Part shown: in pieces, positions 22,003-46,288 of the stretch
Layout of the letters: each line of letters opens with the position of its first letter
Position numbering within the stretch: position 1 is the stretch's first letter
Assembly (NCBI GenBank): GCA_963668655.2
Contig: CAXXPQ010000001.1
Coordinates: 663,318-727,317, forward strand
Length of the DNA: 64,000 nt
From: Myxococcota bacterium
Lineage (GTDB): Bacteria > Myxococcota_A > SURF-8
Reading direction: 5' to 3'
Program-made: the position numbers and the translations under genes
The notes under the pieces: generated by a model
The model's input: the letters and a program-made list of their open reading frames with translations, nothing else
Database searches by the model: none
What the model was told of the DNA's origin: nothing

Positions 22003-25000
22003 ATGCAGTACATCTCCGGACTGTCGTCGGGAATCGACTGGCGCAACATGATCGATCAGATGATCGCCGTCGATCATCAGGTGGTGGACAACCTGACCAC
22101 CCAGCGCAGCGGACTGGAAAGCAAACAGAAAGCCTGGCAGGAAATCAACACGAAGCTGTCGGCGCTGAAGAGCGCGGCCGAAAAGCTTCGTGATCTTGAC
22201 AACTTCAGCGTGTTCACCACCGCGCTGAGCTCCAATTCCAGCACGGACGCGGAAGACATTCTGTCCGCCGCCGTGGGGTCCGGCGCATCCCTGGGAACCT
22301 TCGATGTCGTCGTGTCCCAGACCGCCACCTATGAAAAACTGAGTTCCAACAGTTTCGATTCCGTCAGCGACGCCCTGGGACTTTCCGGGGAATTTCTGCT
22401 GGGGGGACAGCGAATCAACATCGCCGCTTCCGACTCGCTCGCCGCCATCCGAACCAAGATCGAGAACGCCAATTCCGGAGACACGCCTTCGTCCGTCTCC
22501 GCCTCCATCATGACCACTTCAGAGGGCCAGTATCGCCTGGTGCTGACCTCCGACGATTCGGGAGCCGACGGCATCGACATCCGCGACTCCTCCGCGACGG
22601 ATCTGGTTCAGGCGCTGGGATTCACGGACAGCAGCACCTCCATCCGCGAGGCCACCAGTTCCGGCGCGCTTTCCGTCTCCTTTTCCAGCTCCGATACGGC
22701 CGTTTCATCGCTTCTGAACCTGACCGCCGCGCCCACGGGAACCGTGACCATCGGCGCCTACGGCGGAATCAGTCTGGATCTTTCCAAGAGCCTGGAACAG
22801 ATCAAGGACGACATCAACGCCGCAGCCGGGGCCTCCATCGCCAGCATCGTCCAGGAAGAAGGCGACGACGGCGACACCACCTACCAGCTCAAACTGGTGG
22901 GAACCAGCTACGCCGACGACGGCAACGTGCTGGAATCGCTGGGGATTCTTTCGGGAGGGCACGGCAGCGTACAGGAAGTGCATCAAAGCGACGCTCTGAG
23001 CAAAAGCACCGCCGCCGGTGGAGGGGTCATCGACGCTTTCACGTCCTTTTCCCAGATCGACACGGGAAGCGGCCTGAACAACATCGCCAACGGAGACACC
23101 ATCACTCTTTCCGGCGTGGACCACAGCGGAAACACCTTCTCGGATACGTTCACCATCACCAATGCCGCCGGCACCACGGTGGGAGATCTGCTGACGGAGA
23201 TCGAATCCCTGTTCGCCGGCGCGGGCAGCTCCGTCACCGCATCCGTGGACGCCAGCGGTAAAATCACCGTTACCGACGACACCGGCGGCGACAGCCAGCT
23301 GAGTCTGAATCTGGTGGCCAACAACGAAGGCGGAGGCACCCTGGATTTCGGAGAAATCGAGGCCGTCACCGACGGACGCGCCATGCAGGTGCAGGCGGGA
23401 CGGAACGCCGTGCTCACCGTGGACGGCGTGCGTCTGGAACGGGAATCCAATTCCGTGGACGACGCCATCGCGGGGGTGACGCTGAACCTCGCCAAGGCCG
23501 ACAGCAGCACCGTCACCGTGAGCATCGACCGCGATAAAAGCGAAATCACGGGGATGGCCAACAGTTTCGTAAAAGGATACAACTCGGTGGCGAGCTGGAT
23601 TCGGGAGCAGACCAAGTACGACGAGGAAACGGAGTCCACCGGCGGGCCGCTTTTCGGGGACAGCACGCTCACCAACGTCCAGACCCAGTTGCTGAATCTG
23701 GTCATCAATACGGTGGACGGCGCGTCGTCGTCGCTCAACACGCTGGCGGCGGCGGGAATCAGCTTGCAGGAAGACGGCCAGCTCGAACTGGACAGCACCA
23801 AATTCCAGGGATACATCGACACCGATTTCCAGAACCTGACCCGACTTTTCGCGGCCCAGGGCAGCGGATCCATCGGATCCATCGAATACATGTCCTATTC
23901 CCGGGACACCAAGGCGGGCGCCTACGACGTGAACATCACCCAGGTGGCTGAACAGGCCTCCGCCACCGGTTCCGTCGATCTGAGTTCCGGCATCGCGGGC
24001 GCGGAGACGCTGACCCTGACCGACAAAGTCACCGGCCAGGTGGCCGTGGTGGAGATCGAATCCGGCTGGACCACCGACGCCATCGTCAACGCCATCAACT
24101 CGGAAATGGCCCGGAATTATACCCACGTCCTCACCGAGGGGGGCGCGGGAAACACGATCGTCGGCGGGGGGAGCATCACCAGTTCCACCAAATTAAACCT
24201 GATCGACACCACCGGCGGCGGGAACGATCTTTCCAACGGCGACCGCATCACTTTTTCCGGAACGAAACGCAACGGGATCGAGGTTCAGGGTTTCTTCGAA
24301 ATCACGGACGTGGCCGATCAGACCGTGGGAGATCTCCTGGAAAACATCGAGCAGATTCTGGGCGACGAGGTGGACGCCACCATCGACACGAGCGGACACA
24401 TTGTCATCACGGACAAGACCAGCGGTATGAGCCAGATCTCGCTCAACCTCGGGTACGTGGGAGATGGCAGCCTGTCCTTAGGCTCCGTGGACACCAGTAC
24501 CACCGGACGCTATGCCATCGATATCACGGCGGAAAACGACGGGTCCGGACATGTGACGCTGCGTCATGACGATTACGGATCGGCCGCCGGATACACCGTG
24601 GCATCCGCCAACGGATTTCTGGGAATCACCAGTCAGGAATACGTCGGGCAGGACGTGGCGGGAACCATCAACGGCGAGTTGGCCACCGGATCGGGGCAGG
24701 TGCTTTCCGGAAATTCCGGCTCCAACAACATCGACGGACTGGTGATGAAATACACCGGGACGGCGACGGGAAACGTGGGAACCCTCTCCATGACCCTGGG
24801 TTTCGGGGAGGATCTGGAACGCATTCTATACGGCTTCACGGATCCGTATTCGGGCTTGATCGACGCCAAGAACGAAGGATACGACAGCTCCATCGACTCG
24901 ATCAACGAACAGATCGATCGCATGGAAAGCCGGTTGCAACTTCGCCGGCAGACGTTGGTAAACCAGTTTCTGGCCATGGAAAAAATGATGAATACGCTTC

Positions 25001-25044
25001 AGAGCCAGGGGTCGTGGCTTTCGGCCCAGCTCTCGAACATGTAG
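22003..25044 (+). CDS. fliD: Flagellar filament cap protein FliD, unusually long (1013 aa)
   Basis: N-terminus ISGLSSGIDWRNMIDQMIAVD is FliD-like. The C-terminal coiled region (RLQLRRQTLVNQFLAMEKMMNTLQSQGSWL) is also FliD-like. The central part contains duplicated insert domains. Confidence 0.9.
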   Translation: MQYISGLSSGIDWRNMIDQMIAVDHQVVDNLTTQRSGLESKQKAWQEINTKLSALKSAAEKLRDLDNFSVFTTALSSNSSTDAEDILSAAVGSGASLGTFDVVVSQTATYEKLSSNSFDSVSDALGLSGEFLLGGQRINIAASDSLAAIRTKIENANSGDTPSSVSASIMTTSEGQYRLVLTSDDSGADGIDIRDSSATDLVQALGFTDSSTSIREATSSGALSVSFSSSDTAVSSLLNLTAAPTGTVTIGAYGGISLDLSKSLEQIKDDINAAAGASIASIVQEEGDDGDTTYQLKLVGTSYADDGNVLESLGILSGGHGSVQEVHQSDALSKSTAAGGGVIDAFTSFSQIDTGSGLNNIANGDTITLSGVDHSGNTFSDTFTITNAAGTTVGDLLTEIESLFAGAGSSVTASVDASGKITVTDDTGGDSQLSLNLVANNEGGGTLDFGEIEAVTDGRAMQVQAGRNAVLTVDGVRLERESNSVDDAIAGVTLNLAKADSSTVTVSIDRDKSEITGMANSFVKGYNSVASWIREQTKYDEETESTGGPLFGDSTLTNVQTQLLNLVINTVDGASSSLNTLAAAGISLQEDGQLELDSTKFQGYIDTDFQNLTRLFAAQGSGSIGSIEYMSYSRDTKAGAYDVNITQVAEQASATGSVDLSSGIAGAETLTLTDKVTGQVAVVEIESGWTTDAIVNAINSEMARNYTHVLTEGGAGNTIVGGGSITSSTKLNLIDTTGGGNDLSNGDRITFSGTKRNGIEVQGFFEITDVADQTVGDLLENIEQILGDEVDATIDTSGHIVITDKTSGMSQISLNLGYVGDGSLSLGSVDTSTTGRYAIDITAENDGSGHVTLRHDDYGSAAGYTVASANGFLGITSQEYVGQDVAGTINGELATGSGQVLSGNSGSNNIDGLVMKYTGTATGNVGTLSMTLGFGEDLERILYGFTDPYSGLIDAKNEGYDSSIDSINEQIDRMESRLQLRRQTLVNQFLAMEKMMNTLQSQGSWLSAQLSNM

Positions 25045-28887: not shown

Positions 28888-28916
28888 TTGACTTATGGCC
28901 AGGCAAGGATTACATT
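28888..28916 (+). promoter_or_regulatory. Putative sigma-70 promoter (TTGACT-N17-TACATT)
   Basis: Good -35 with a 17-nt spacer. It implies a ~140-nt 5' UTR for the DEAD-box helicase gene. Confidence 0.35.
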
Positions 28917-29062
28917 GCCATCAACCGCAGGCGATCCTCCAGCGAATCCGCGTGATTCCTCACGCTTCTGGGCCACGAATAAATCTCCCCAGACTATCAT
29001 CGATGCAGGCCGCGTTTGCCGTCTACCTTGGACGAATCAAGGCAACGAATAGGTATATTTCT

Positions 29063-30385
29063 ATGCAATTCGAAGAATTCCGTTTTTCCAACACCCTACT
29101 GAAGGCCATCCATCACCAGGGGTACGAAACCCCGACGAAAATCCAGGAGTTGGCCATCCCCCACGTATTGAAAGGAGAGGATGTCATGGGCTGCGCCCAG
29201 ACCGGAACCGGCAAGACGGCCGCTTTCGCGCTTCCGGTCCTCCACCGTCTCAACCATCCCGGCTCGCGACACGGGAAAAGGCGCATCCGTGTTCTGACGC
29301 TCGCTCCCACCCGGGAACTGGCCTCCCAGATCGGGCAGAGTTTCCAGGATTTCGGTCGGACTCTCGGATTCCATTCCACGGTGATCTTCGGAGGCGTCAG
29401 CCAGTATTCCCAGACCCAGGCGCTTCAGAGAGGCGTGGACATCCTGGCGGCCACTCCCGGTCGGCTGCTTGATCTGATGAACCAGGGCTATGTCGATCTC
29501 TCCCGCATCGAGGTGCTCGTTCTGGACGAGGCCGATCGCATGCTGGACATGGGCTTCATCCACGACATTCGCCGCGTCGTCGCGGAAATCCCCCGGGAAA
29601 GGCAAACCCTGCTCTTTTCCGCGACCCTGGATCCCGGAATCGTGAAACTGGCGAAAGGCATCCTGAACGAACCGGTGCGGGTGGATGTCACTCCGCCGGC
29701 GACCACGGTGGAACGCATCGATCAGTCCGTCTTTTTCGTCGAACGTTACGACAAAATCGGGCTGCTGACACACCTGCTGAAAGACGACGCCATGGCCCGC
29801 ACCCTGGTGTTCACGCGAACCAAGCACGGCGCGGATAAGGTCGTGCGCAAACTGGACCAGGCGTCCATCGGTGCAGTGGCCATTCACGGCAACAAGTCCC
29901 AGAACAAGCGGGAACAGGCCCTGGATGCGTTCAAACGCGGGAAGTTCCGGGTGCTGGTGGCCACGGATATCGCCTCCCGGGGGCTGGATATCGATCAGGT
30001 GACCCACGTGGTGAACTTCGATCTGCCCAACGAGCCGGAGGCGTATGTCCACCGCATCGGGCGCACCGGGCGCGCGGGCGCTTCGGGAATCGCGCTGTCT
30101 TTCTGCGGATCGGACGAACGCAATCTGCTTTCCGTCATCGAACGACTGATCGGACAGCGTTTGTACGTCGCCAAGAAACCGAAAATCCAGGAAACGGATA
30201 TTCGGAAAACCGATGGAATCCCGGAATATTCCGCCGCTACGCCGAGCGCCGGGCGGGGTTCCGATTCGAATCGGGCGAAGGAGGATTCTCCGCGCGTGTA
30301 CCGCAAACGAGGCCCGTCCCGGCGCTCCAACCGCTCCGGTTTCCGCCGTTCGCAGCGTAACGCATCCTGCGGAACAGCTCCGTAA
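29063..30385 (+). CDS. rhlE: ATP-dependent DEAD-box RNA helicase (RhlE-like)
   Basis: Q motif (F..TPTKIQ), [15 protein letters not shown] and [10 protein letters not shown]. Basic R/S-rich C-terminal tail. Confidence 0.9.
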
Positions 30386-30449: not shown

Positions 30450-30645
30450 CATTGAAGCCACTCCGCTGCAAAAGCCCGTTCGTCAGGTGAAATGGACGGG
30501 GAGGTCCGGGGTGTCAGGATGGCTTGACAATCAATGAAAGACGCTGAACGTCTGAATTCGCCCGCCACTCACTATCTTATTGAAATTATAGAAGTATTTT
30601 CTTGAAAAGGTGAATCGGCCAAGGCGGGCGTTTCGGCATGACTTT

Positions 30646-30654
30646 TGCTATAAT
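30646..30654 (+). promoter_or_regulatory. Extended -10 element (TGcTATAAT)
   Basis: A perfect TATAAT with an upstream TG lies ~70 nt before the ATG at 30724. The -35 is weak. Confidence 0.35.
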
Positions 30655-30723
30655 GTTCAACGTGGAAATTTGCGGCATTTTCGAAAAGCATTGCGAGACG
30701 GCAATCAAGCACGGAGAAATCCC

Positions 30724-33700
30724 ATGGCGAGTATTTCGACGGTCAAACGGTTTGGACTGCTTCTTCTGGTTCTGGCCGCCGGATCCTGTTCGGGACCGGC
30801 CAGTTACGATTCCCTGTTCGGGGACGATCTCTGTGTGAGCCAGGAGGATTGCGAGGACGGCAGAATCTGCGTGAACGGCTATTGCGTTCCGGATCCGGGC
30901 GGAGACTTCGATTTCTCCACCGACGGCGACGACCCGGACGGCGATGTTCCCACGGACGGGGACGACCCGGACGGGGATTCGGATTTCGATCCGGACATGA
31001 CGCCGTTTTCCTGCCAGGAACTGAGCGGAATGTGCGTGGGCGACGACAATTGTCCGGAAGGCATGCGCCCCCATTACGATCCGGCCGGATGCGCGGAGCC
31101 CAAACCCATGTGCTGCCTGCCGGAATCCGAAACGCTTTGCGAACTCTACGGCGGATATTGCGAGGGAGCCGAGGCTTCCGCCTGCTATCGCCCGGGTTAC
31201 GGCATGAACGCGCAGGATCCCATGGGATGCGATGAACAAGGGGGATTCTGCTGCCTGCCCACCACGGACTGCGTTCCGGATGGCGAGGTCGGCACGTTCA
31301 ATCAGGATGTCTGCTGTCCCGGGCTGATTCAGATCGGGGCCGTTTTCCTGGCCGATGAAAACGATATTCATTCCAATTGCATCGATGCGCCCTGCGACTG
31401 CTTTGTCTGCTCCCGCTGCGGAAACGGCGTCTGCGGAGCCGGGGAGAGTCATTGCAATTGCGAGGCCGATTGCCCGCCGCCTCAGACGTACTGCACCACC
31501 GACGCCGATTGCGGCGAGAGCTATTGCGAGGAAACGGTCAACGGCCAGTGCCTCCAGTACGATCCTTCCTGCGAACAAGGCGCCTGCCATCCGAATATGG
31601 GATCCCACGAATCCTCGCTCTGCCTGGTGGATACCTGCGCGCCTTTCGCCTGCCAGATGGGCGACCTGATCTATCACGATTGCTGGGACGGCTCCCAGGT
31701 GGTGGTCTGCGAATGCCTGGGCGGCGGCGGCTGGAAGTGCGAGGAAGACCCGGACAGTCTCTGCCCGGAGGAGCCGGAGTGCGGCGTCGGCCAGGAAATC
31801 CCCTTCCAGTGCCCCACCGGGGAATGGGTGACCGACTGCGTGTGCGAGGGCGGTGAATGCAAACCCTTCTGCGACAACATCGGCACGCGCCAGGAAGGCT
31901 GGTACGATTCCTGCGGCGGCGGCCTGCTGAGTTACGCCCTCTGCGGGGTCTGCCAGGCCCAGTGCCGCCGGATGGGCAGCGCGGAGGAAGGCTGGTACGA
32001 CGCCTGCACCGGCCAGGCGCTCCGCATGGATGCCTGCACTCCCCATTGGGAATGCGCGGACAATCCCCTGAGCCAGTGTCGCACCGATCCCACCCAGTGC
32101 GAGAATCTGGGCGGTTACTGCGCGGCCGAGGGCGAGATCTGTCCGCCCACCTGGGCCGGAAGCACGGACGCCCTGCTCGGCTGTCCGTTCGCCTGCTGCC
32201 TGCCCAACGTGGACAACGACTGCGAGCGCAACGAGGGCTTCTGTTCCGACGCGTCCACCGGATGTCCCCTGGGCTCCAAAGCGGTGGAGATGGATTGCTC
32301 CGGCTCCCGGACGTGCTGCATCGCGGAATTTCCCTTCTGCAACGAGGCCGGTGGAAGTTGTTTCGATCCCGAATACGCCTGCCCTCCGGGCTGGTTTCCC
32401 GCCTCCGGCGTTCCTTTCGTCTGCGCCGATGGAGGTTTCTGCTGCTTCCCCGAAGAGACCAATCCCTGCACCGACGCCGGGGGCGTCTGCTCTTATGCCA
32501 ACCAGGGCTGCCCGGTGGGTCATGAAATCTCGTCTCTGAACTGTGGTGACGACGATTCGATCTGCTGCATGCCCTCCGGGGAGAACGAATGCGAACGATG
32601 GGGCGGCTATTGCGAAAGCTACGCCAACCCCTGCGCATGGGGCTTTACGGACATCTCCTATCCGGCCGGGTGCCTGGGCTCGGAACGCTGCTGCATTCCC
32701 GAAGGTCCGAACTGTTACGACGACAGCGATTGCGGCGAGTCTTCCTGTTACGAGTACGGCTGGGTGGACGCCGAGGATCCTGCCGAACCCTGGCCGACCA
32801 CCTGTGTCGAAACCTATCCCTACTGCGAAGACGGCTATTGCGGATCGTATGAGGAAATTCACGAAAGTTCCTCGTGCATCGACGGCCGATGCCTTCCCTA
32901 CCCCGCGTACTGTTCCGATATCGGCGGGGCTTGTTACTGGCAATGTCCGGATGGCACCGTTCCCGTCTACGAAGACTCTTTCCAGGATTGCGGACAGCGA
33001 TATTGCTGCGTGCCCATGGAGGCGAGCTGTGAAGAGGCGGGCGGCTTCTGCATCGGCTGGGGACCGCAATGCCCGTCCGACACTTACGTGGATTGGGAGC
33101 ATCCCTGCGAATACGGCCAGTGCTGCATGCCGTACGAGGAACCGGAGTGTTACGTCGATTCCGATTGCGGACGGCAGGAGTGTTATACGTACGACAGCGA
33201 TTACGGCGCCTGTACGGAAGCCATTCCATACTGCGAAGGGGGCCGCTGCGCCTATTATGAAATCTATTTCGACAACGCCGCGTGCGGCCCGGACGGGCAG
33301 TGCTATGAGATCGGCGCGGATTGCCAGGACGCCGGCGGCACCTGTTTCCTGGGCCTTGCCTCCTGTCCCCAGGGGTACGAATCGCGTCCCGGAGAATGGG
33401 AATGCAACTATAACGCCATCTGCTGCTTCGAAGAAAACACGGTATACGACTGCGACCGCATCGGCGGTTTCTGCTCCGGATACGGGCAGGGCTGTCCTCC
33501 GTATACGGAGTACGAGCCGAACGGCGCGTGTCCGGTGGGCGAAGGATCCTGCTGCCGGGAGGTGGCTCCGAATTACTGCGAGGACATGGGCGGTTTCTGC
33601 TCCGGATACAATCAGCCCTGCCCTCCGGGAACCCAGGTGGAATACGATTACTGGTGCGCCGACGGCGGCGGCAACTGCTGCGTCCCGATGGAGGAAAACA

Positions 33701-34698
33701 TCTGCGAGATGGAAGGCGGCGTCTGCTTCGACAACAATTATTGCCCGGACGATATGGAGCCGGTGTACCTGCCGTGCGGGGATACGGACGGCCTTTGCTG
33801 CATTCCCCGGGAAGTCAACGAATGCGAAGACATGGGCGGGTTCTGCCGTTCCTATAACTATGCCTGCCCCAGCGGGTACGAAGACGCGCCCTACGGCGGG
33901 TGCAACGAAGGCTACGCCCGTTGTTGCGCCCCGGCGGAAACCGTCGAATGCGAGGAACAGGGCGGCTACTGCTCCCGGCCCACCAACGGCTGTCGCGACG
34001 GCTACCAGCCGATGAACGACTCCATGGGATGTGAGTATCCCAATCGGCTCTGCTGTCTGAGGGGAGGAAATTTCTGCAGTTCCGACCGGGATTGCGGCGA
34101 ATCGAAATGCGACATGGACGCCGACGGCGGCTGTGTTCAGTATTATCCGTATTGCGGAGAGGACGGCATTTGTCGCGAGGAGACGGAAACCATGTACCCG
34201 GCTTTCTGCGACGGCGAATGGTGCGTGCCGGGCGAATGCATGCCGGGCGACGAACAATGGCACCATTGTCCCGACGGCCTATCTTTCCCCTGGTGCTGGT
34301 GCACGGAGCAGGGAACCTGGGATTGCATGACGGACGATCCGGACGAAATGTGCGGACCCGTGGAGGTTAATTGCGAGGATGACCTGAACGGCTACTGCGG
34401 AAGCTGGGGGTCGGACTGCCTGGAAGGTTTCGTGGAAGAACCCGACGCTGTTTGCGACGGATTCTGCATCGGCGGATGCAAGTGCTGCGCTCCGGATCCG
34501 AACCTGATCTGCACGCAACTGGGCGGCTATTGCAACATGAGTTTCGGCGGCTGCGACAACGGGTACATCGAAGCGCCGTTCAACGCCGGATGTCCGAACA
34601 TTTTCGGCTTCCAGATCGATTGCTGCGTCCCGGGACTCTTCCCTATGTCCGAAAACCCCGACTCCGTTCCGACCCTGATGAGCGGCGAGACGGAATGA
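30724..34698 (+). CDS. Giant cysteine-rich modular lipoprotein (1324 aa, acidic)
   Basis: Signal peptide with lipobox (LLVLAAGSC). Internal ATG at 30724. Modular Cys repeats run throughout. A bidirectional terminator lies downstream. Confidence 0.85.
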   Translation: MASISTVKRFGLLLLVLAAGSCSGPASYDSLFGDDLCVSQEDCEDGRICVNGYCVPDPGGDFDFSTDGDDPDGDVPTDGDDPDGDSDFDPDMTPFSCQELSGMCVGDDNCPEGMRPHYDPAGCAEPKPMCCLPESETLCELYGGYCEGAEASACYRPGYGMNAQDPMGCDEQGGFCCLPTTDCVPDGEVGTFNQDVCCPGLIQIGAVFLADENDIHSNCIDAPCDCFVCSRCGNGVCGAGESHCNCEADCPPPQTYCTTDADCGESYCEETVNGQCLQYDPSCEQGACHPNMGSHESSLCLVDTCAPFACQMGDLIYHDCWDGSQVVVCECLGGGGWKCEEDPDSLCPEEPECGVGQEIPFQCPTGEWVTDCVCEGGECKPFCDNIGTRQEGWYDSCGGGLLSYALCGVCQAQCRRMGSAEEGWYDACTGQALRMDACTPHWECADNPLSQCRTDPTQCENLGGYCAAEGEICPPTWAGSTDALLGCPFACCLPNVDNDCERNEGFCSDASTGCPLGSKAVEMDCSGSRTCCIAEFPFCNEAGGSCFDPEYACPPGWFPASGVPFVCADGGFCCFPEETNPCTDAGGVCSYANQGCPVGHEISSLNCGDDDSICCMPSGENECERWGGYCESYANPCAWGFTDISYPAGCLGSERCCIPEGPNCYDDSDCGESSCYEYGWVDAEDPAEPWPTTCVETYPYCEDGYCGSYEEIHESSSCIDGRCLPYPAYCSDIGGACYWQCPDGTVPVYEDSFQDCGQRYCCVPMEASCEEAGGFCIGWGPQCPSDTYVDWEHPCEYGQCCMPYEEPECYVDSDCGRQECYTYDSDYGACTEAIPYCEGGRCAYYEIYFDNAACGPDGQCYEIGADCQDAGGTCFLGLASCPQGYESRPGEWECNYNAICCFEENTVYDCDRIGGFCSGYGQGCPPYTEYEPNGACPVGEGSCCREVAPNYCEDMGGFCSGYNQPCPPGTQVEYDYWCADGGGNCCVPMEENICEMEGGVCFDNNYCPDDMEPVYLPCGDTDGLCCIPREVNECEDMGGFCRSYNYACPSGYEDAPYGGCNEGYARCCAPAETVECEEQGGYCSRPTNGCRDGYQPMNDSMGCEYPNRLCCLRGGNFCSSDRDCGESKCDMDADGGCVQYYPYCGEDGICREETETMYPAFCDGEWCVPGECMPGDEQWHHCPDGLSFPWCWCTEQGTWDCMTDDPDEMCGPVEVNCEDDLNGYCGSWGSDCLEGFVEEPDAVCDGFCIGGCKCCAPDPNLICTQLGGYCNMSFGGCDNGYIEAPFNAGCPNIFGFQIDCCVPGLFPMSENPDSVPTLMSGETE
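31012..34632 (+). repeat. 17 copies of a ~36-40-aa 6-Cys module (C-[ED]-x2-G-G-[FY]-C-x3-6-C-P-x9-13-C-x3-6-C-C-[LIVM]-P)
   Basis: Read directly from the translation. Examples are CENLGGYCAAEGEICPPTWAGSTDALLGCPFACCLP and CEDMGGFCSGYNQPCPPGTQVEYDYWCADGGGNCCVP. There are 17 CC dipeptides in this context. Confidence 0.9.
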
Positions 34699-34842: not shown

Positions 34843-36336
34843 CTACCGGCGTTCTTCCGGAGCGTCCGGGTTCGGGAACTCCGCCGGTTCGCAGGCGGAG
34901 GCGTTTTCCATCCCCAGAAGATCTCCCAGGGAGAAGCATTTATACGGCTGCGCCGGAATGGGCACCGTTCCCGCCGCCACCCAGAACAGGAGTTTCGCCG
35001 GGTCGAACAGAACCATGTGCATGGGACCGTTGGTCCCGATTCCGGCGTTGTTGTCCACGTTGGCCTCGTTCCAGGGGGCGGAGACGCCCGTGCGCGGGTT
35101 CACCCGGTCGCGCATCACCGCGATGACCTTGGCCGGATCCAAATCTCCGTAGAGAGAGTCCTGTCCGTTCGGCGGGATCAGTTGCGAAAGCCGTTCCCAG
35201 CGCATCAGGCTGGAATCCGGATAATCCTGGCTCTGCGGCAGATCGTAATCCACCATGCCGGGATCTTCGAAGTGGTTGCTGGTGAAGACGTAGCCGTCCG
35301 TGAGCGTGCGTTCCGCCATGTGCTTGCCGGTCATTTCGAACACCGAGCCCTCCCCGGTCTCGCCGTCGGCGAACACCAGCATTTCCGAAGACATGTGCGG
35401 CTCGCCCGCCAGGAAAGCGCGCACGTCGGCCATGCTTTCGGCCGAGGCGATGATCTCGCCCAGCATCTGTGCGTGGCTGCGGCCCGTCTCGTTCTTTTCC
35501 GTGTCGTCCACCGGATCCGCCTCATGGCTGACGCCCGTGATGCCCGCCGCATTCATGCTGGTGTAAGGACTCAGATTCAGAGGGAAACCCACATACACAT
35601 GGGGCACGCCGCCCGAAGGCTGGCGCACGAAAATCACCGGGTTGGCGTGAATGATGCTGATATCCATGCCGCTCCAGTCCAGGTTGCGGGCGTGATAGAG
35701 CCGCCCGTCCGCCGTGGCGTCGCCGGAGACGATCAGGCTGGTGCAGCCCGGGCCATCGACCTCACGCCGCTTGAAGGAGGGAATGTTCTCCAGCATCACG
35801 TCGCCGAAGTTGAGGATCAGGCAATAGGTCATGGTCAACCCGGTGCCCTCGGCGGCGTCCACCAGCCCCTGGCATTCCTGCAAAAGACTCGGATAGCTGT
35901 TGGCCTCCGCCATTTCCACCAGGCCCAGGCCCTCCGCCAGGCTGGCCAGCATACGCAGTTGATTGTCCGCCTCCACGAACTCGATGGCTTCCTTGATGGT
36001 ATCGTACAGCAGTTCTCCCTGCTGATATCCCATTTCGTACGGCGTGCCGTGCAGCCAGACCACCGTAAAGCCGTTCATTTTCTCCGTGTGCGCCTCGATG
36101 TAATCCGCTTCCTCTTCCGCGTCGCCGTCCGTTTCTGCATCGCCATCGATCGCTTCCATGTCGCCGTCCATTTCGCCGTCGCCATCCGGAACCTCGGTAT
36201 CGCCGTCGGGAGATTCCGTGTCGCCGTCCACGTCCTCGTTTCCATCGTCATCGCTGCAAGCAGGCAAAAACGCCAGCGTAAGAAGCAGCAGCAGTACGCC
36301 CACGAGTTTCCAGAATGCCGGTTTGCCTGTCTTCAT
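34843..36336 (-). CDS. Peptidase C45 / Ntn-hydrolase (acyl-CoA:6-APA acyltransferase-like) lipoprotein with polyacidic tether
   Basis: Start at MKTGKP (36336). Lipobox AFLPAC. DGD/DGE spacer. Putative autoprocessing and nucleophile site GPGCTSLIVSG..RLYHARNLDW. Confidence 0.7.
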   Translation of the reverse strand: MKTGKPAFWKLVGVLLLLLTLAFLPACSDDDGNEDVDGDTESPDGDTEVPDGDGEMDGDMEAIDGDAETDGDAEEEADYIEAHTEKMNGFTVVWLHGTPYEMGYQQGELLYDTIKEAIEFVEADNQLRMLASLAEGLGLVEMAEANSYPSLLQECQGLVDAAEGTGLTMTYCLILNFGDVMLENIPSFKRREVDGPGCTSLIVSGDATADGRLYHARNLDWSGMDISIIHANPVIFVRQPSGGVPHVYVGFPLNLSPYTSMNAAGITGVSHEADPVDDTEKNETGRSHAQMLGEIIASAESMADVRAFLAGEPHMSSEMLVFADGETGEGSVFEMTGKHMAERTLTDGYVFTSNHFEDPGMVDYDLPQSQDYPDSSLMRWERLSQLIPPNGQDSLYGDLDPAKVIAVMRDRVNPRTGVSAPWNEANVDNNAGIGTNGPMHMVLFDPAKLLFWVAAGTVPIPAQPYKCFSLGDLLGMENASACEPAEFPNPDAPEERR

Positions 36337-36484
36337 GTTTTTTTCCTGCCTTCGTTGATGTGCCGTTTTCGAAATGAAATCTCTTCGCACCCATCATTAT
36401 GGCCAAACCGCGTGGTTCGTCAAGGTTCCCCCTCGTCTTCCGGATTTTTTCCATCGCATTCGCCCCGGAGAAACCATGTGTGCT

Positions 36485-38754: not shown

Positions 38755-41700
38755 TCAAGGGGCCGTGCAGTCCGTCAGGCAGATACAGGTTCCTTCTCCA
38801 TCCACAAAGGGGATCCGACCTTCCCAGCAGGTCTGTCCCACGTCGCAAAGCGGCGTCCCCGGCGAGGATTCCTGGCAGGCATCGTCCAGGCAGACGTGAT
38901 GGCCTTCCGCGCCGCAGCAGCGTTCGCCGCCGTTGCAGGCGCCGTCGTCCCCCCAACCGTTTCCCGCAAGAATCTGTTCCATCGGATCGCAGGTGACGCC
39001 CGGATCTTCGCAGACCGGAGGGTTGTGATTCCAGGGTTCGCAGTAGCCGCCGTCGTCTCCCGCCACGCCGCCTGGGTAGGCCACGCAGGCCCACTGGGGT
39101 TCCGTGTCGTCCCGGGTTTCGTCGGCGGGATCGGCGGGACAGTCCGCCGCCCCCAGCGTACAACCCGCCACGCAGCGGGCCGAGATCTCCCCTTCCACGC
39201 AGATATCGCCTTCGGTCGCACAGGCCGAGGGATCCAGCGGATCGCAGACGGGCAGGGCGTCCCACCAGGAGAGGAAGGTTTCCGCGACATGGCTCTGCTT
39301 GCGGCAATAGCCCGTTTCGAACAGGGAGACGCCGAATTCGTCGGCCTGGATGTGCGGCATGCAGGTGAAGCCGTCGTCGCATTCGTGGGGCAGAGGCGTG
39401 CAGGGAATGCGGCATTCCCGGAAGACGGCCTGCCCCTGCACGCGGTCCACGCAGACGCCGTCTCCAAGGAAGGGATGGCGGACGCTCAGTTCGAACGGCC
39501 CGCCGTGGATGCGGCCGCCTTCCTTCAATCCGTCCACGATCACGCAGTAACTCCCCGGGATGAGTCGCAATTCCTCCAGCCGCGGGCTGAAGCCCATGAA
39601 GCCGTCGTCGCAGGCCAGGGGCTCCGAGTCGGCGTCGTCGCAGGGGCCGCTCCAGACCTCCAGCGCGGCCTTGAATGCGGCGGAAACGCGCAGATCCACC
39701 TGGACGGTTTTCGGGACGGTCAGTTCGAACATCTGATCCGGGCTGCCGCCGGTTACGGCGCAGCTTAAAGAAACCTTGTCCGTACGTCCGGAGGTGTCGC
39801 CCGCCGCCCAGACACCGGCGGTATAATCCAGGTCGGACAGGATCGTGGCGCGGTCGGCGCGTTCTCCGTCTCGCGGTCCGGCGAAGGCCGCCCGCATGGA
39901 GAGCGACGCGGCCAGGATTTCCGCCGTTTTCCCGGTCTGGTTGTCTACGACCAGCCGCCAGGTTCCGGCGGCGTGGACGTTCTCCAGGCGGTCCAGGTTT
40001 CCCGGCGTGCTGATGGCGGGCAGGGCGAGGGAAAGCCGCCAGCCGGTTTCTCCTTGGGCGGCCGCGCCGCTGTCGCCTCCCGGCCAGGAGCGGAAGTCGG
40101 AGAATCCGCCGATGGCGAGTTCGGTTCCGTCCGGCGCGACGAGGGTTAGATCCAGCGAGGACGCGGGCGATTCCGCGAACTCGACGGCGAACAGGAGCCC
40201 CAGGTCCAGCACGTCCAGGGCGGGAAGATGCAGGGAGAAGGTGTTTTCTCCCGAAAACAGCGGCGTACTGACGGGTTCCAGGAAATCGTACTTCTGGGCG
40301 GCGGCGCTTCCGGCGGGGTTGGGGATCATGCGGACCTCGGTCCGGTTGCCCGGGTCGTCGGTGAAAAGCAGCACGTCCCTGCGGCCGTCGCCGTTCGCGT
40401 CGAACAGCCGCAGGCCGGTGGCCCAGCCGTCCCCGGCGTCGTAGGTGGCCTGGGGGCCGAAGGATCCGTTCGACTGTATCAGACGCACGGCCAGGCGCAG
40501 GCGCGGCGGGCCGGTGGCGACCGAAGGAAAGACCACGAGGAGATCGTCCAGACCGTCGCCGTTCATGTCCGCCCATTCGAAAAAGACCTTTCCCAAAAGG
40601 CCCTCCATGGCGAAGGCGACGGGTTCGGCCGTTTCGGTGAACGCGCCCATGCCGTCTCCCGTAAAGATCCGCAGAAGATTCTGGGACGTGCGAACCGCCA
40701 GGTCTTTCAGGCCGTCGCGATTCAGATAGCCCACGCGCACGGAGGCTCCGTCCAGATCCTCCGGCCCCACGGGAAATTCGTCGATGCCTTCCTCGGAGGC
40801 GGCATGGCCGTACAGGCGGCCGTCGTCCGCCAGGACCAGGAGATCCGAGCGGCCATCCGCGGTCAGGTCCGCCGAATGCAGTTCGAGGATGCTGCGTTCG
40901 CTGAAGTCCATGGGGGAGGCGAAGGTGCCGTCTCCCTGGGAAATGAGGATGGCGTCTCCCAAAGCGAGATCCCCCAGGCCGTCATCGTCGAAGTCTCCGT
41001 GCAGCACGGCCAGCGTGTCGATGGCGAGCATTATGCCCGTGTCGATGCCTGCGTCGAAGGATCCGTCTCCCGTTCCGGGAAAAACGGTGAGGTACGCTTC
41101 GGGGCCGCCCGTTCGCGTGTGGACCAGGGCCAGGTCGAGCAGACCGTCCACGTAGAAATCTCCCACCACGAGCCGTCCGGCTTGTACGTCCGTCAGATCG
41201 ATCTGTCCGATGAGGCGTGTGTCGGGCGGGACGGAGGAGGGCGGGACTTCGCGGATCTCGATGCGTTCTCCATCGACGAGCCAGGCCATGTCCGCACGGC
41301 CGTCGTTATCGAAGTCGCCGAGCACGGCGTCCTGAATCGCGTCGTTGCCGAACACGGAGCTTTGGAAGGGCGCGCTCCGGCCCTCCATGCGGCCGTCCAG
41401 GAACACGGTGCGGACGCCGGAATCCTCCGCTTGCAGGGCGGCCAGTTCCAGAAGGCCGTCGCGGTTGGCGTCCGTGAGAAGGAAATCGGAAATGTGCTTG
41501 TCCTCGCCGATGCCGGAGTTTTCTATGATATTGGAGAGGGCGAAAACGCCGTTGCCCTTTCCCGGATACCACAGGAAGCGGGCCGGCGCGCCCGGTGTGC
41601 TCATGGCCAGAAGATCGAGGCGTCCGTCGCCGTCGAAATCGGCCACGGTGAGGGCTTCCGCCGGCAGTTCCAGGGTTTTCGCTTCCACGCTTCGGAAACG

Positions 41701-44700
41701 GCCGCCGCCGTCGGAAAGGAACGTGACCAGTCGATCGGGATTCGCCGCCGATCGCGCCAGGAGGTCCGGAGCGCCGTCGAAATTGAGATCCCCGACGAAC
41801 AGGAGGCGCACGGGTTCGGTCAGCGTCAAGGCGGCGTAGCTCATTCGCAGCACGCCGTTTTCCGCCTCCACGCCCAGATACCAGCCCAGCACCGCGTCCG
41901 GGGAACTCATGGCGATGTCCGGCTTCCCGTCCCCATTGAAGTCCGCCGCCAGGTAATCGAGCGCATCGAATTCCGGTGGATTATCGCCGTGAACTTCCTC
42001 GAAAGCGCCAGGGACGAAAGAACCGTCCGCCCGGTTCACGTACCAGGCCGGGCGGCGATTCACGGCATCGTGAACCAGGATGTCCGGGCGTTTGTCGCCG
42101 TTGAAGTCCGCGATGGCCAGGATATCCGTCTGCCAGCCGAGATCTTCCACGAGCCGGCCGTTTTCCGGGCTCGAAGCGCCGTAAAAGACCGCGCCCGCGC
42201 CCGTTACCAGATCCCGATAGCCGTCGCCGTCCAGATCGGAAACGGCGAGCGTGCGCACCGGGTCGGAGAACGATACCGCCGGATCGAGCACGGAAAACGG
42301 CTGCACCTCGTCCGCAAGCGTGTTGTCGGAGCGGGGTTCGTAGAGCGTCACGGTGGAAAGATCCGCCGCCCAGGCCGCTAGTTCGGGCAGGAAATCCCCT
42401 TGAATGTCGCCGGTTTCGAGATGTTGCAGGGTTTCCGCGTGGGCCTGTCCGAAGGCGTTCGGATGAAAATGCCCGCTCTGACGGCCCAGCGAGGAAAGAT
42501 CCGTAAAAGCCTTCGCCGGTCCCGGAGAGCTTTCCAGTTCGAACCCGGAAAGGGGCGTGCCCAGGGGCAGGCCCAGGGCATGGGGGCCGCCCGGATAGCT
42601 CCCGGCGGGACGGGTCGCCGTGCGTTCGTCCGATGTCCACTGAGAGAGGCGCACGTGGGTTTCGGGATCGGAGACGTAGACGCCCGCGGAAGCCCGTATC
42701 TCTGCGGAATCCGGGAACTCGCCGGAATCCCAGGGACTTTCGAAGCGTTTGCGGATTCTGGCCGGATCGCGGGCGATACGGTTCGTGGCGTCCAGACGGT
42801 TTTCCATCACGTCGTCGCCGTTGGCGTCTTGAACGGATTCCACCCGGTGATTGACGGCGAAGGGGCGGGCGCTCTGCCCGCCGCCCGGCGCGGCGTTGAC
42901 CACCGCGAGGTCGTAGGGGGCATCCGCCGCCGGAAGCGCAAAATCGGGGAAGCGCGCCAAAAGAATCCAGGAGGTGGGGCCGCCGGATTCCGAGCCCTCG
43001 GCCTCCGGATCGGGCAAGAGGCGCAGCACCTCGCCTTCCGTCGAATCGATCTGAATACGGGCGTTGTCCATGAAGCGGAAGCCCTCTACCCATACGAAAA
43101 GATCCTGTGAAATCGGGAGATTCTGCTCGTCCAGCCGTTCGACGGCATAGGATTGCGGCAGGAAAGGCCGCACGCAGGCGGACAGGTCTCCTGCCCCACA
43201 AGCCAGGCGCAGTTCGTCCAGCAGCTGTTCGGCTCCCGACGGACAGGTTTCGATGGCGGCCGTGCAGTTCTCCGGGAAGGTTTCGCAGGCCCAGAACTCC
43301 CGGCGACAGGCCTCGGGCAGCCAGGCGATGGCCTGTCTGGATTCGAAGTCCAAGGCCGTGACGGCGGTGATTTCCGGAGCCGGAGCCACGACGTGCAGGA
43401 AGTCCGTCTCCTCCGAAACGCCCGTGGATTCCACGGGTTCCGGGGTGACGACCCGCACCGGATAGGAACCGGTGGCGCGCATCAGCGGGTGGGTGTCCGC
43501 CAGAACCAGGCGGCAGCAGTTGATGCAGTCGGGGGGCACGCCGTCTTCCGCCGCCGGGCAACTTACGGCGTCGCTTTCCGCCGCCGTGCAGGCCATTCCG
43601 TTGACCGTGCCGGAAAGCCCGCAATCCATCATCAACTCGAAATCCCCTATCCGTGCCCGGGTGCCGTATTCCGGATGGCCGGGAGCCCCGGAGACGAAGT
43701 TCCAGCCGAAAATCGTCAGATCCGTCAGGCCGTTTTCGGAGTTCATGGCCACTACGGAGCCGGGCGAAACATGAGAGAGCGCCGGGACGGGACGCGTGCT
43801 CTGGGGTACGTCCAGAAGTTCAAGATGGAACTCTCCGATGGCCGGAACGTGCGTATCGGGAAGTTCGCTGCCGTTCTGCGCCCGGTCGAAAAAGCGGAAA
43901 TACAGGATTTTTTCTCCGGGTTCACCTTCCAGGGAAAGCGAGACGCCGGACGTGGCCGGGATGCAGTCCGCGTCGATGGGGGAACAGTTTCCCATGTCGC
44001 TTCGGTTCTGGGATACCTTGAAATAGGCCGTATCCGCGTCCGATTCCCGGATTTCCACCTGGACCACGGCGGAGGACACCGGAACGGGCGTTTCTCCCTC
44101 GGACCAGGATTCTCCGTTCACGCGCAGGCGGCCCAGGCCGGGGGGCGTGGTGTCCGCCTCCACGACATCGAAAAAGCCCGGCGAGACGTTGCCGGCTGCG
44201 TCCTTCAGAAAAGCGGAAACCGTGTTCAGCGCGTTGGGGTTTTTCAACTCCAGATCCAGCGGAAAATTCGTCAGCGCGACCGTTCGTTCTCCGTCCGCCA
44301 GATCGCCGCGCAGCACCGCCTTCAGACCGGTTTCGGCGCTCTGAACGTTTACGGAAACCGTCGCCGTGTTCACCAGATCCGCTCCTCCGGCCAGGGTGAG
44401 CGTTCCCGCGACGGGGGGGACGGTGTCCAGAGATATCTCGTTTTTGCTTTGCAAGGCCGCCGGGGTGACGTTTCCGGCATTGTCCCGGGCGCAGATCCAC
44501 AACGAGCGCAAGCCTTGTATGCCGGAAATGACGGTTCCGAAACGGCCGTCTTCCGGAAGCGTACGGTACTCGCCATGGGCGCAGTCGAAATCCGTTTCCG
44601 AAACGGCCACGCCGGCCACGCCCGACAGCGCGTCGGTGGCGTCCACATGCACGTCCACCATGGGACTGCTCGCCATTTCCCCCGCCGCTCCTCCGTTCAG

Positions 44701-45921: not shown

Positions 45922-46288
45922 GTAAGGCTCCTTGATCGCGGCGCGCCGCCGCCGAATGGGCGGAACGACCGAACGTATATTTTGTTCTGGCGACCGGTAC
46001 TGCGTCGAATACATGGATTTTAGACGAAAAGTCGGAAAAGTCAATTCGTTACGCAAGCTTCGGGATGATTCCCCCGGGCGTCTCCCCGGGATTCCCCGGC
46101 GGCGAGGTTCCGTCCGGAGGGAGGTCGGCGACGTGCGATTCGGTTCGGCTTCCGAAATTCTTTTCGGATGATTATCGTCGGTTTCCGTCTCTAATTCCTT
46201 TACAGTTTCCCGGTCGCCGTGTTTGAATGCAAAGTGCAACTTGGACGTGGGACGGAAAAGACCTGGGAACGACAAGGAGAAACGGCGC

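Follow-up and report, generated by a model that had tools for sequence, protein, structure and literature searches.

Does a bacterium carry, in one of its lipoproteins, a domain with the cysteine framework of animal beta-defensins? The question is raised by a 64,000-nucleotide stretch of a Myxococcota genome (contig CAXXPQ010000001.1, positions 663,318 to 727,317; hereafter, the window), in which one gene encodes a lipoprotein of 1324 amino acids (aa). A first-pass annotation, made from the letters alone, had described 17 tandem six-Cys modules in this protein and had stated that their framework was known only from animals. This agrees with the literature, where the trans-defensin framework is described for animals only (PMC7203481, PMC11561630) and where the only bacterial defensins described in a 2024 paper are cis-defensins (PMC11561630). 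Our literature search returned no report of bacterial trans-defensins or beta-defensin-like modules, nor of tandem arrays in crustaceans or insects. Our answer is that the module family is an uncatalogued tandem-array version of what is predicted to be the trans-defensin fold and that it spans kingdoms.

The modules in question, here called A modules, are 33 to 39 residues long, lie between 31012 and 34626, and account for 45% of the protein, which otherwise comprises an N-terminal knot, a tether and no fewer than three further kinds of Cys-rich module. The gene and its A modules are as follows.

30724..34698, + strand: gene for the 1324-aa Cys-rich lipoprotein, stop included (from the list of open reading frames; ATG with an upstream GGAG; five full-length homologues with conserved Cys)
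31012..31116, + strand: module A1, aa 97-131
31138..31254, + strand: module A2, aa 139-177
32098..32199, + strand: module A3, aa 459-492
32221..32319, + strand: module A4, aa 500-532; bead 1 of the three-bead AlphaFold model
32338..32445, + strand: module A5, aa 539-574; bead 2 of the three-bead model
32467..32568, + strand: module A6, aa 582-615; bead 3 of the three-bead model
32590..32694, + strand: module A7, aa 623-657
32911..33009, + strand: module A8, aa 730-762; short C2-C3 gap of 3
33028..33126, + strand: module A9, aa 769-801; non-Cys identity of 68% with a bead of homologue P0015
33322..33426, + strand: module A10, aa 867-901
33451..33555, + strand: module A11, aa 910-944
33577..33681, + strand: module A12, aa 952-986
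33703..33801, + strand: module A13, aa 994-1026
33823..33927, + strand: module A14, aa 1034-1068; modelled singly by AlphaFold, with a predicted local distance difference test score (pLDDT) of 84.6
33949..34056, + strand: module A15, aa 1076-1111
34372..34488, + strand: module A16, aa 1217-1255; 8-Cys variant
34510..34626, + strand: module A17, aa 1263-1301; non-Cys identity of 64% with a bead of homologue P0043

All 17 copies were confirmed, the first at aa 97-131 and the last at aa 1263-1301, and the range originally given for them, 31012-34632, is exact: it opens with the first Cys of module 1 and closes with the module 17 'CCVP'. The consensus proposed with it was too strict: the framework is real, but just 5 modules match it as written, and the true gaps are wider (C2-C3, 3-7; C3-C4, 10-14; C4-C5, 3-9). 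Six Cys per module likewise holds generally, but module 16 has eight. A loose regular expression for the framework found 16 matches in the protein; when the residues of this Cys-rich protein were shuffled 2000 times, the number averaged 0.68 and never exceeded 4, so the repeat is not a by-product of Cys richness. Against a hidden Markov model (HMM) of the module, the 17 copies score 28-52 bits each, and they carry the family motif C-[ED]-x2-G-G-[YF]-C-x6-C-P-x-G-[YF]-...-C-...-CC-[LIVM]-P-[ED]. It is almost certain that the A-module repeat is a real repeated domain family.

Tandem Repeats Finder, run on the gene, detected no DNA tandem repeat under any A module; it reported just two repeats, one with a 33-bp unit (30909-30979) and one of 15 bp in two copies (34222-34250), the latter on the boundary of modules B4 and C2 (described below). 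Twelve of the 17 beads are nearer to a bead of another species than to any sibling (mean non-Cys identity, 44% versus 33%), and for this reason the array, judged by sequence, is old and its beads are individually conserved. An assembly artefact or a recent amplification is ruled out by the lack of a DNA-level repeat together with the divergence of the beads. The 8-Cys variant, penultimate in the window protein, is the final module of homologues P0002 (988-1031), P0003 (762-804) and P0006 (1137-1180), where it reads …C-G-D-x2-C-A-G-G-C-x-CC. Its place near the C-terminus in all four proteins points to a terminal bead that is specialised and carries a fourth disulfide.

No family described in Pfam or NCBIfam covers the module, in line with the first-pass annotation. 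Searched whole, at a threshold as lenient as E ≤ 10, the protein matched nothing in Pfam-A, NCBIfam or the PDB sequences, and the module consensus sequences had no useful match in Pfam. With single modules, Defensin_beta (PF00711) was the only Pfam family matched by several of them; other matches to single modules included Myotoxins (crotamine) and Inhibitor_I68 (PF10468, the tick carboxypeptidase inhibitor [TCI] family; 1 of 57 modules, E = 0.37), both of which are beta-defensin-fold families. All of these matches were below threshold.

Structure prediction pointed in the same direction. We modelled module A14 with AlphaFold2 from a 57-module alignment of six full-length homologues, obtaining a mean pLDDT of 84.6, a helix at residues 3-6 around C1, and strands at 10-13, 22-25 and 35-40. 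A Foldseek search of this model against 350,542 PDB chains placed hBD3 first, followed by crotamine and the cnidarian SCRiP, with alpha-defensins lower. The model superposes on crotamine with a template modelling (TM) score of 0.67 and a root mean square deviation (rmsd) of 2.2 Å over 41 columns, and on SCRiP with a TM score of 0.61 and an rmsd of 1.6 Å. A second model, built from a different alignment, covered three other consecutive beads (aa 497-618; pLDDT, 71.7) and has three strands in each bead and a helix in beads 1 and 3. Its top Foldseek matches were hBD1 crystal structures (probability, 0.96-0.99; target-normalised TM score, 0.67-0.73; rmsd, 1.8-2.0 Å; 26% identity), and the two-domain TCI structure 1zlh was matched across 81 columns. 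With three strands in four of four modelled beads and an N-terminal helix in three of the four, the predicted fold is related to that of trans-defensins, as the likeness of the Cys pattern had led the first-pass annotation to consider. Its alternatives of an undescribed bacterial fold or convergence stand only in part: the family is undescribed, but its predicted fold is the known beta-defensin fold. We consider it probable, on the strength of these models, that the modules adopt the beta-defensin (trans-defensin) fold.

The details of the framework are in keeping with such a fold. The 58 modules of the six proteins read C-x6(7)-C-x3-8-C-x10-14-C-x3-9-CC, overlapping the textbook beta-defensin framework C-x4-8-C-x3-5-C-x9-13-C-x4-7-CC, and the usual C2-C3 gap of 6 is just beyond the textbook 3-5 and equal to that of crotamine. 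Among 256 non-redundant bacterial modules, the Gly that forms the beta-bulge two residues before C2 is conserved (G9 invariant; G8, 73%) and aligns with the GG of hBD1 and crotamine. The G-x-C, C-P and terminal CC noted earlier as beta-defensin-like thus have a counterpart, the GG-x-C bulge and the C-P after C3 being common to the modules and crotamine. Compared residue by residue, crotamine and module A14 have C1 to C4 at equal positions and differ by one residue before the CC. Beta-defensins and crotamine (PF00711, PF00819) therefore share with the modules the six-Cys framework, the bulge, the C-P and the predicted helix plus three strands. They differ in being single-domain, cationic, secreted animal peptides, whereas the window protein is a bacterial lipoprotein with 17 acidic copies; the cationic, amphipathic, free secreted state of beta-defensins is not found in these modules, with charges of -2 to -10 in a lipoprotein array. 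The CC-[LIVM]-P-[ED] ending and the C-P-x-G-[YF] motif are specific to the module family. From the superpositions at 20-26% identity, which need aligned Cys, and from one co-loss variant, we infer the disulfide pairing C1-C5, C2-C4 and C3-C6. In trans-defensins, which pair in this way, the two bonds that leave the last strand run in opposite directions. The co-loss variant is a natural 4-Cys module in P0004 and P0005, which has lost C3 along with one Cys of the terminal CC; it is the one Cys-loss variant informative for pairing, 354 of the 369 modules in the family being complete.

We then asked whether the sequences themselves carry a link to trans-defensins. A profile of 147 diverse bacterial modules, taken mostly from outside the six homologues and with eukaryotic sequences removed, was searched against 177,635 PDB sequences. 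The best matches were gallinacin-11 (E = 0.0043, both domains), crotamine (E = 0.008) and the TCI domain 2k2z (E = 0.059), followed by Defensin-BvL, hBD1, DLP-1 (the platypus DLPs) and BNBD-12; 20 of the 22 matches at E ≤ 10 have the trans-defensin fold. Gallinacin-11 (AvBD11; 6qeu), the best PDB sequence match, is itself a natural tandem of beta-defensin units, differing from the window protein in having two cationic units and in being a bird egg antimicrobial protein. AvBD11 is called atypical since most defensins consist of one unit (PMC9138766).

In local hhalign comparisons, the bacterial profile aligned with 16 beta-defensin sequences over 34 columns (probability, 67%; P = 5e-5), whereas alpha-defensins (0.4%) and cis-defensins (1.9%) each aligned only on 7-column fragments. 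Three of the reference defensin sequences give the PDB-search scores exactly. As a Cys-fixed control, we held the Cys columns and permuted the other columns within each inter-Cys segment 200 times. The observed hhalign score of 19.5 was reached by none of the 200 permutations (mean, 9.7; maximum, 18.0), and for mBD1, hBD1, BNBD-12, TCI-C, crotamine and hBD3, the observed HMM scores were reached by 0-5 of 200. Since the permuted profiles rarely or never reach the observed scores, the likeness appears to exceed the Cys spacing, marginally and mainly through the invariant GG-x-C and C-P positions. Kinship with alpha-defensins or cis-defensins is ruled out by the failed hhalign controls, and the CxxxC...CxC motif of cis-defensins is absent from the modules. 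The bacterial cis-defensins (xanthusin, AdDLP, actifensin and actinomycesin) are alike in being disulfide-rich defensin-type domains in bacteria, myxobacteria included (PMC11561630), and differ in their cysteine-stabilised alpha/beta fold, their CxxxC...CxC motifs and their occurrence as free peptides.

How widespread is the module? A word-indexed search of the full-length query against 5.8 billion clusters returned five full-length homologues only, all with a lipobox, the N-terminal knot, the acidic tether and 8-11 modules. The module HMM, the search that the first-pass annotation had suggested, retrieved 87 proteins at E ≤ 1e-3 in an exhaustive HMMER run over 1.84 billion representatives. 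The family holds 369 module copies, 354 of them with all six Cys and 90% with a Pro after the CC (P41). A lipobox is present in ~65 of 88 family members, and small lipoproteins of 2-3 modules are numerous. All bacterial members that carry a taxonomic label come from metagenome-assembled genomes of Myxococcota, Myxococcales or 'Deltaproteobacteria'.

The description of the module as bacterial was borne out by its occurrence in Myxococcota but proved too narrow, as decapod and insect proteins belong to the family too. Four of the 87 proteins are animal and hold from 3 to ~23 modules: P0008 (XP_068250204.1) from the shrimp Palaemon carinicauda, with 1606 aa and ~23 modules encoded on a 130-Mb chromosome; P0011 (XP_064089211.1) from the prawn Macrobrachium nipponense; P0051 from the moth Mythimna loreyi; and P0046 from the moth Spodoptera exigua. 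Both decapod proteins are annotated as 'Notch-like' in RefSeq, yet neither has an EGF or Notch Pfam domain; both consist of repeated copies of the module, with additional Cys and with NxT sequons, and the 'neurogenic locus Notch-like' label is probably a misannotation. A metagenomic protein (P0018, on a 1,621-bp Joint Genome Institute contig) combines a VWA domain and mucin-like linkers rich in Pro and Thr with four strongly cationic modules, on which it reaches an E value of 6e-14; from its sequence, its source looks eukaryotic. The P0018 modules resemble classical beta-defensins, e.g., CEKKGGKCFDNKRCPSGWKSAGRRGGKCPGKGRKCC. A further search, started from the moth protein, found the family in noctuid moths (Spodoptera, Helicoverpa), a mayfly and crickets (P0102-P0114), as small, secreted, cationic proteins with 1-4 modules. 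These insect relatives have no Pfam domain, their only names in the sources are 'Carboxypeptidase inhibitor' and 'U-scoloptoxin(19)', both derived from similarity, and the bacteria-only profile recognises all of them.

By profile, the arthropod tandem-module proteins belong to the same family (E values from 3e-29 to 7e-6 among 1.84e9 proteins), with arrays of up to ~23 copies. They differ from the bacterial proteins in their eukaryotic signal peptides, N-glycosylation sequons and introns, and the shrimp modules have extra Cys and the insect modules are cationic. No Pfam family covers any of these arthropod proteins. In Spodoptera frugiperda, the gene (locus L037, 6001-7795) takes 1,795 bp for 189 aa and is not colinear with its protein, indicating introns. 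Bacterial contamination as the source of the animal members is excluded by these introns and by the chromosome-scale contigs. Bacterial and eukaryotic modules have the motifs G-[FY]-C, C-P-x-G-[YH] and CC-[IV]-P-E in common, and hhalign joined the two sets with a probability of 98% (E = 6e-14; score, 48, versus a maximum of 33 in Cys-fixed permutations). These similarities make a common ancestry of the bacterial and arthropod modules likely. Within Ecdysozoa, panusins are the only beta-defensin-like arrays known so far, horseshoe-crab big defensins apart (PMC7203481).

The window protein bears the features expected of an exported lipoprotein, arranged around the array as follows.

30724..30789, + strand: signal peptide and lipobox (LAAGS-C22), by a PROSITE PS51257-type pattern; lipobox in all homologues
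30832..30885, + strand: N-terminal 4-Cys knot CVSQEDCEDGRICVNGYC, kept in all six homologues
30886..31011, + strand: acidic DGD-rich tether, seen in the sequence and partly encoded by the 33-bp DNA tandem repeat
34627..34695, + strand: C-terminal tail VPGLFPMSENPDSVPTLMSGETE, seen in the sequence

The enclosing open reading frame is 30610..34698 (+), and the likely start is the ATG at 30724, with GGAG 7 nt upstream. The PS51257-type rule demands a positive n-region, a hydrophobic h-region and a lipobox of the form [LIVMFWSTAG](2)-[LIVMFYSTAGCQ]-[AGS]-C in the first ~35 residues; the N-terminus MASISTVKRFGLLLLVLAAGS-C22 matches it, and the signal peptide with its lipobox, MASISTVKRFGLLLLVLAAGSC, satisfies the lipoprotein rule. 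Cys22 is the predicted lipidation site. The protein would be exported by Sec, lipidated at Cys22 and, from the Ser at +2, sorted to the outer membrane, as the sorting rules for lipoproteins hold that Ser at +2 directs a lipoprotein there. It contains 179 Cys (13.5%), with 18% Asp+Glu and just 2.8% Lys+Arg. The 178 Cys that remain besides Cys22 in the mature protein, an even number, would become oxidised into ~89 disulfides.

So Cys-rich and acidic a protein might instead bind metal through the thiolates of its 179 Cys, as a metallothionein-like or sulfide-related protein with no disulfides. The Cys content and the many acidic residues are what such a protein would have, but export and lipid anchoring, as read from the sequence, place it in an oxidising compartment, Cys are even in number in every A module as well as in the mature protein, and the predicted compact beta fold matches disulfide-rich structures. 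The Cys spacing is, moreover, of an invariant disulfide type, with neither CxC nor CxxC metal motifs inside the A modules. Metal binding is thus highly improbable.

Taken as a whole, the lines of evidence are best explained, with a fair degree of likelihood, by a lipid-anchored, exported protein of an uncultured Myxococcota bacterium, with ~30 disulfide-locked modules, of which 17 have the beta-defensin fold and kin in arthropods. A number of observations weigh against this explanation. Defensin_beta was matched by 4 of the 57 single modules only, with a best E value of 0.011 and a printed score of 15.6 bits against a cut-off of 21. All Foldseek E values exceed 0.2 and are nonsignificant, though this is expected for domains of ~40 residues, and AlphaFold, trained on beta-defensins, may reproduce the fold from the Cys pattern alone. 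For hBD2 (20/200) and TCI-N (43/200), the observed scores are indistinguishable from those of Cys-fixed permutations, and the likeness to canonical beta-defensins (E values of 0.004-0.008; Pfam below cut-off) could stem from shared structural constraints. Near-identity among internal repeats exaggerates the significance of the shrimp and prawn proteins (E values of 3e-29 and 6e-24), whose single modules score 14-29 bits. The joint loss of C3 and a terminal Cys fits C3-C5 as well as C3-C6. A surface rather than periplasmic location is what we infer from the sequence, Pfam and NCBIfam scans found no enzymatic or known binding domain in the lipoprotein, and the analysis of the fold is wholly in silico. 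Finally, none of the window neighbours accompanies the homologues at their loci, and because the neighbours are not conserved, we propose no operon for the lipoprotein gene.

Some of these points would suit pure convergence, in which an independent disulfide-rich domain happens to share six-Cys spacing and structural Gly with beta-defensins, the AlphaFold fold is a memorised template, and the real fold may differ. The Defensin_beta cut-off that is never reached, the nonsignificant Foldseek values, the hBD2 and TCI-N permutations and the consensus sequences that match nothing all speak for it, and there is a precedent, as cis- and trans-defensins are themselves regarded in the field as convergent (PMC7203481). 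Against it, the non-Cys positions add ~10 bits or more for the best references, an increment rarely matched by permuted profiles. The matches, drawn from 24,736 Pfam models and 177,635 PDB sequences, have almost all been to the trans-defensin fold and not to other six-Cys families, the alpha- and cis-defensin controls failed, and four beads from two alignments were all three-stranded, three of them with an N-terminal helix. Convergence is made less likely by this evidence of sequence and fold, and we regard it as unlikely.

If the modules do have the beta-defensin fold, each bead would begin with a short helix around C1, continue with a Gly-Gly-x-C2 bulge and three antiparallel strands, and close with the CC pair. 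The acidic DGD tether would hold an extended, protease-resistant, beads-on-a-string fibre, with linkers of 6-8 residues, off the membrane. Each bead would keep its own conserved loop surface and thereby act as a distinct binding unit in the adhesion or capture of partners, possibly enzymes. Distinct binding surfaces are favoured over a pure spacer because the beads are individually conserved and their loops differ strongly from one another. A surface fibre that binds in this way (an adhesin or capture device) is a tentative proposal for the function. The architecture, though nothing else, resembles that of EGF-repeat proteins, with their long arrays of ~40-residue, three-disulfide modules, short linkers, acidic patches and membrane tether. 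EGF repeats have another Cys framework and fold, and the window protein has no Pfam EGF match.

The main functional rival is a multiheaded array of enzyme inhibitors resembling TCI or the anemone amylase inhibitors, which would shield the cell from its own or its competitors' hydrolases. TCI (I68; 1zlh, 2k2z), a nonantimicrobial tandem of beta-defensin-fold domains, comes up both by sequence (2k2z, E = 0.059; Pfam I68, E = 0.37) and by structure (1zlh), and the names of the insect relatives point the same way. Beta-defensin-like alpha-amylase inhibitors exist in sea anemones (PMC6835510, PMC10604346), and the individually conserved beads suggest distinct targets. TCI has two domains, however, whereas the window protein has 17 beads as well as further kinds of module, a lipid anchor and an unrelated acidic tail. 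To inhibit a carboxypeptidase, TCI inserts its free, hydrophobic C-terminal tail into the active site; of the 17 beads here, 16 have no free C-terminus, and the protein itself ends in ...PTLMSGETE, which is not a TCI-like hydrophobic tail. PF10468 stays below its cut-off, the insect names are derived from similarity only, and no peptidase or glycosidase gene is consistently adjacent at the family loci. An inhibitor array is accordingly a doubtful candidate for the function.

It is harder still to see the protein as a polyprotein precursor that is cleaved between the beads into free defensin-like peptides, whether toxins or antimicrobials. Tandem peptide precursors are common in eukaryotes, and there are cationic bacterial homologues with beads of +4 to +6 and basic residues in some linkers. 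In the window protein, however, the linkers (LPESETL, MPSGENE, VPMEENI, etc.) have no dibasic or other recognisable processing sites and are free of Lys and Arg, apart from two linkers with a single Arg apiece; the beads are strongly acidic. An intact architectural protein is indicated by the lipid anchor and by the interleaving of B and C modules, an architecture that the homologues also keep, and we hold cleavage into free peptides to be very unlikely.

Charge bears on the function in another way. Every window module is strongly acidic, with a net charge of -2 to -10, and this negative charge disfavours membrane-lytic defensin activity, in agreement with the earlier caution that no antimicrobial role was implied. 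The acidity that had been ascribed to the modules holds for those in the window but is not intrinsic to the module, as the cationic bacterial homologues P0060, P0038 and P0017 have the same mosaic architecture with beads of +1 to +6. We compared the following genes of the window.

22003-25044, 34843-36390 and 38755-46308: exported genes
28895-30385 and 46223-48241: cytoplasmic genes

The exported proteins (FliD, the AAT lipoprotein, the FG-GAP protein and the target lipoprotein) have 3-7% Lys+Arg and 13-18% Asp+Glu, whereas the cytoplasmic ones are balanced. Since all exported window proteins are acid biased and cationic homologues exist, the acidity, to judge from composition, at least partly reflects the organism's exoproteome, which appears to be acid biased, rather than the module itself. 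On the same two grounds, we reject the idea that the fold as such is acidic.

The segments between the A modules are Cys rich as well.

31270..31473, + strand: segment 'CCPGL...CSRCGNGVCGAGESHCNCEADC', aa 183-250; invariant in the family; no Pfam match
31492..32079, + strand: B1 (31492-31638), C1a (31651-31764), C1b (31780-31872) and two 'EGWYDxC' units (31870-32079), by Cys spacing
32713..32892, + strand: B2 (CYDDSDCGESSC...), by Cys spacing
33148..33303, + strand: B3, by Cys spacing
34075..34353, + strand: B4 (34075-34224) and C2 (34237-34353), by Cys spacing

The four type B modules read 'CxxDxDC' and the three type C modules 'C9C8C1C7C', in addition to the two 'EGWYDxC' units. No non-A segment gave anything above threshold in Pfam or NCBIfam; the N-terminal knot alone gave matches below threshold, all to animal modules (DUF7107, EB, Dickkopf_N and DPY). 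The CCPGL segment has the pattern 'CCPGL...CxRCGNGxCGxGExxCNCxxDC', and tblastn found relatives of it in the Candidate Phyla Radiation (Peribacteria, Peregrinibacteria), in DPANN (Woese-, Pace- and Nanoarchaeota), in Altiarchaeales and in other Myxococcota. It has the look of a Cys motif that is widespread in surface proteins yet uncatalogued.

The lipoprotein gene stands alone, in a neighbourhood of housekeeping genes; its neighbours in the window encode a DEAD-box helicase, a DGD-tethered AAT/C45 lipoprotein, an acyl-CoA synthetase, a 2517-aa FG-GAP protein and FliD. Four loci are described further.

34843-36390, - strand: neighbouring lipoprotein with a DGD-rich tether followed by an AAT/C45-type domain (23.3 bits versus a Pfam cut-off of 23.2)
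22003-25044, + strand: 1013-aa FliD flagellar cap protein
38755-46308, - strand: giant open reading frame for the 2517-aa FG-GAP/VCBS-repeat protein with a CarboxypepD_reg-like region
53057-63955, - strand: giant open reading frame of 3632 aa with a Glu/Leu-rich, helical-repeat-looking N-terminus and 0.5% Cys

Myxococcota are not usually thought of as flagellated.

The origin of the beta-defensin fold would be reopened by a diversified Myxococcota family with that predicted fold and with a sequence link to shrimp and insect arrays. It is possible, and we put it forward with reserve, that the trans-defensin fold is not an animal invention and that uncultured Myxococcota have an old, diversified family of it, made of individually conserved beads in acidic and cationic lineages and homologous to the arthropod arrays and remotely to beta-defensins, crotamine and TCI. 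If this is so, there may have been horizontal transfer between Myxococcota-like bacteria and animals, or the fold may predate animals, paralleling the proposed myxobacterial origin of cis-defensins. The work provides an HMM for a family that neither Pfam nor NCBIfam includes, corrects the 'Notch-like' annotations of the decapod proteins, and offers peptide engineers dozens of natural variants of the scaffold, acidic as well as cationic. With 17 copies, as opposed to a known maximum of two for the beta-defensin fold, the window protein suggests that bacteria would use a three-disulfide minidomain as eukaryotes use EGF repeats, in long extracellular arrays.

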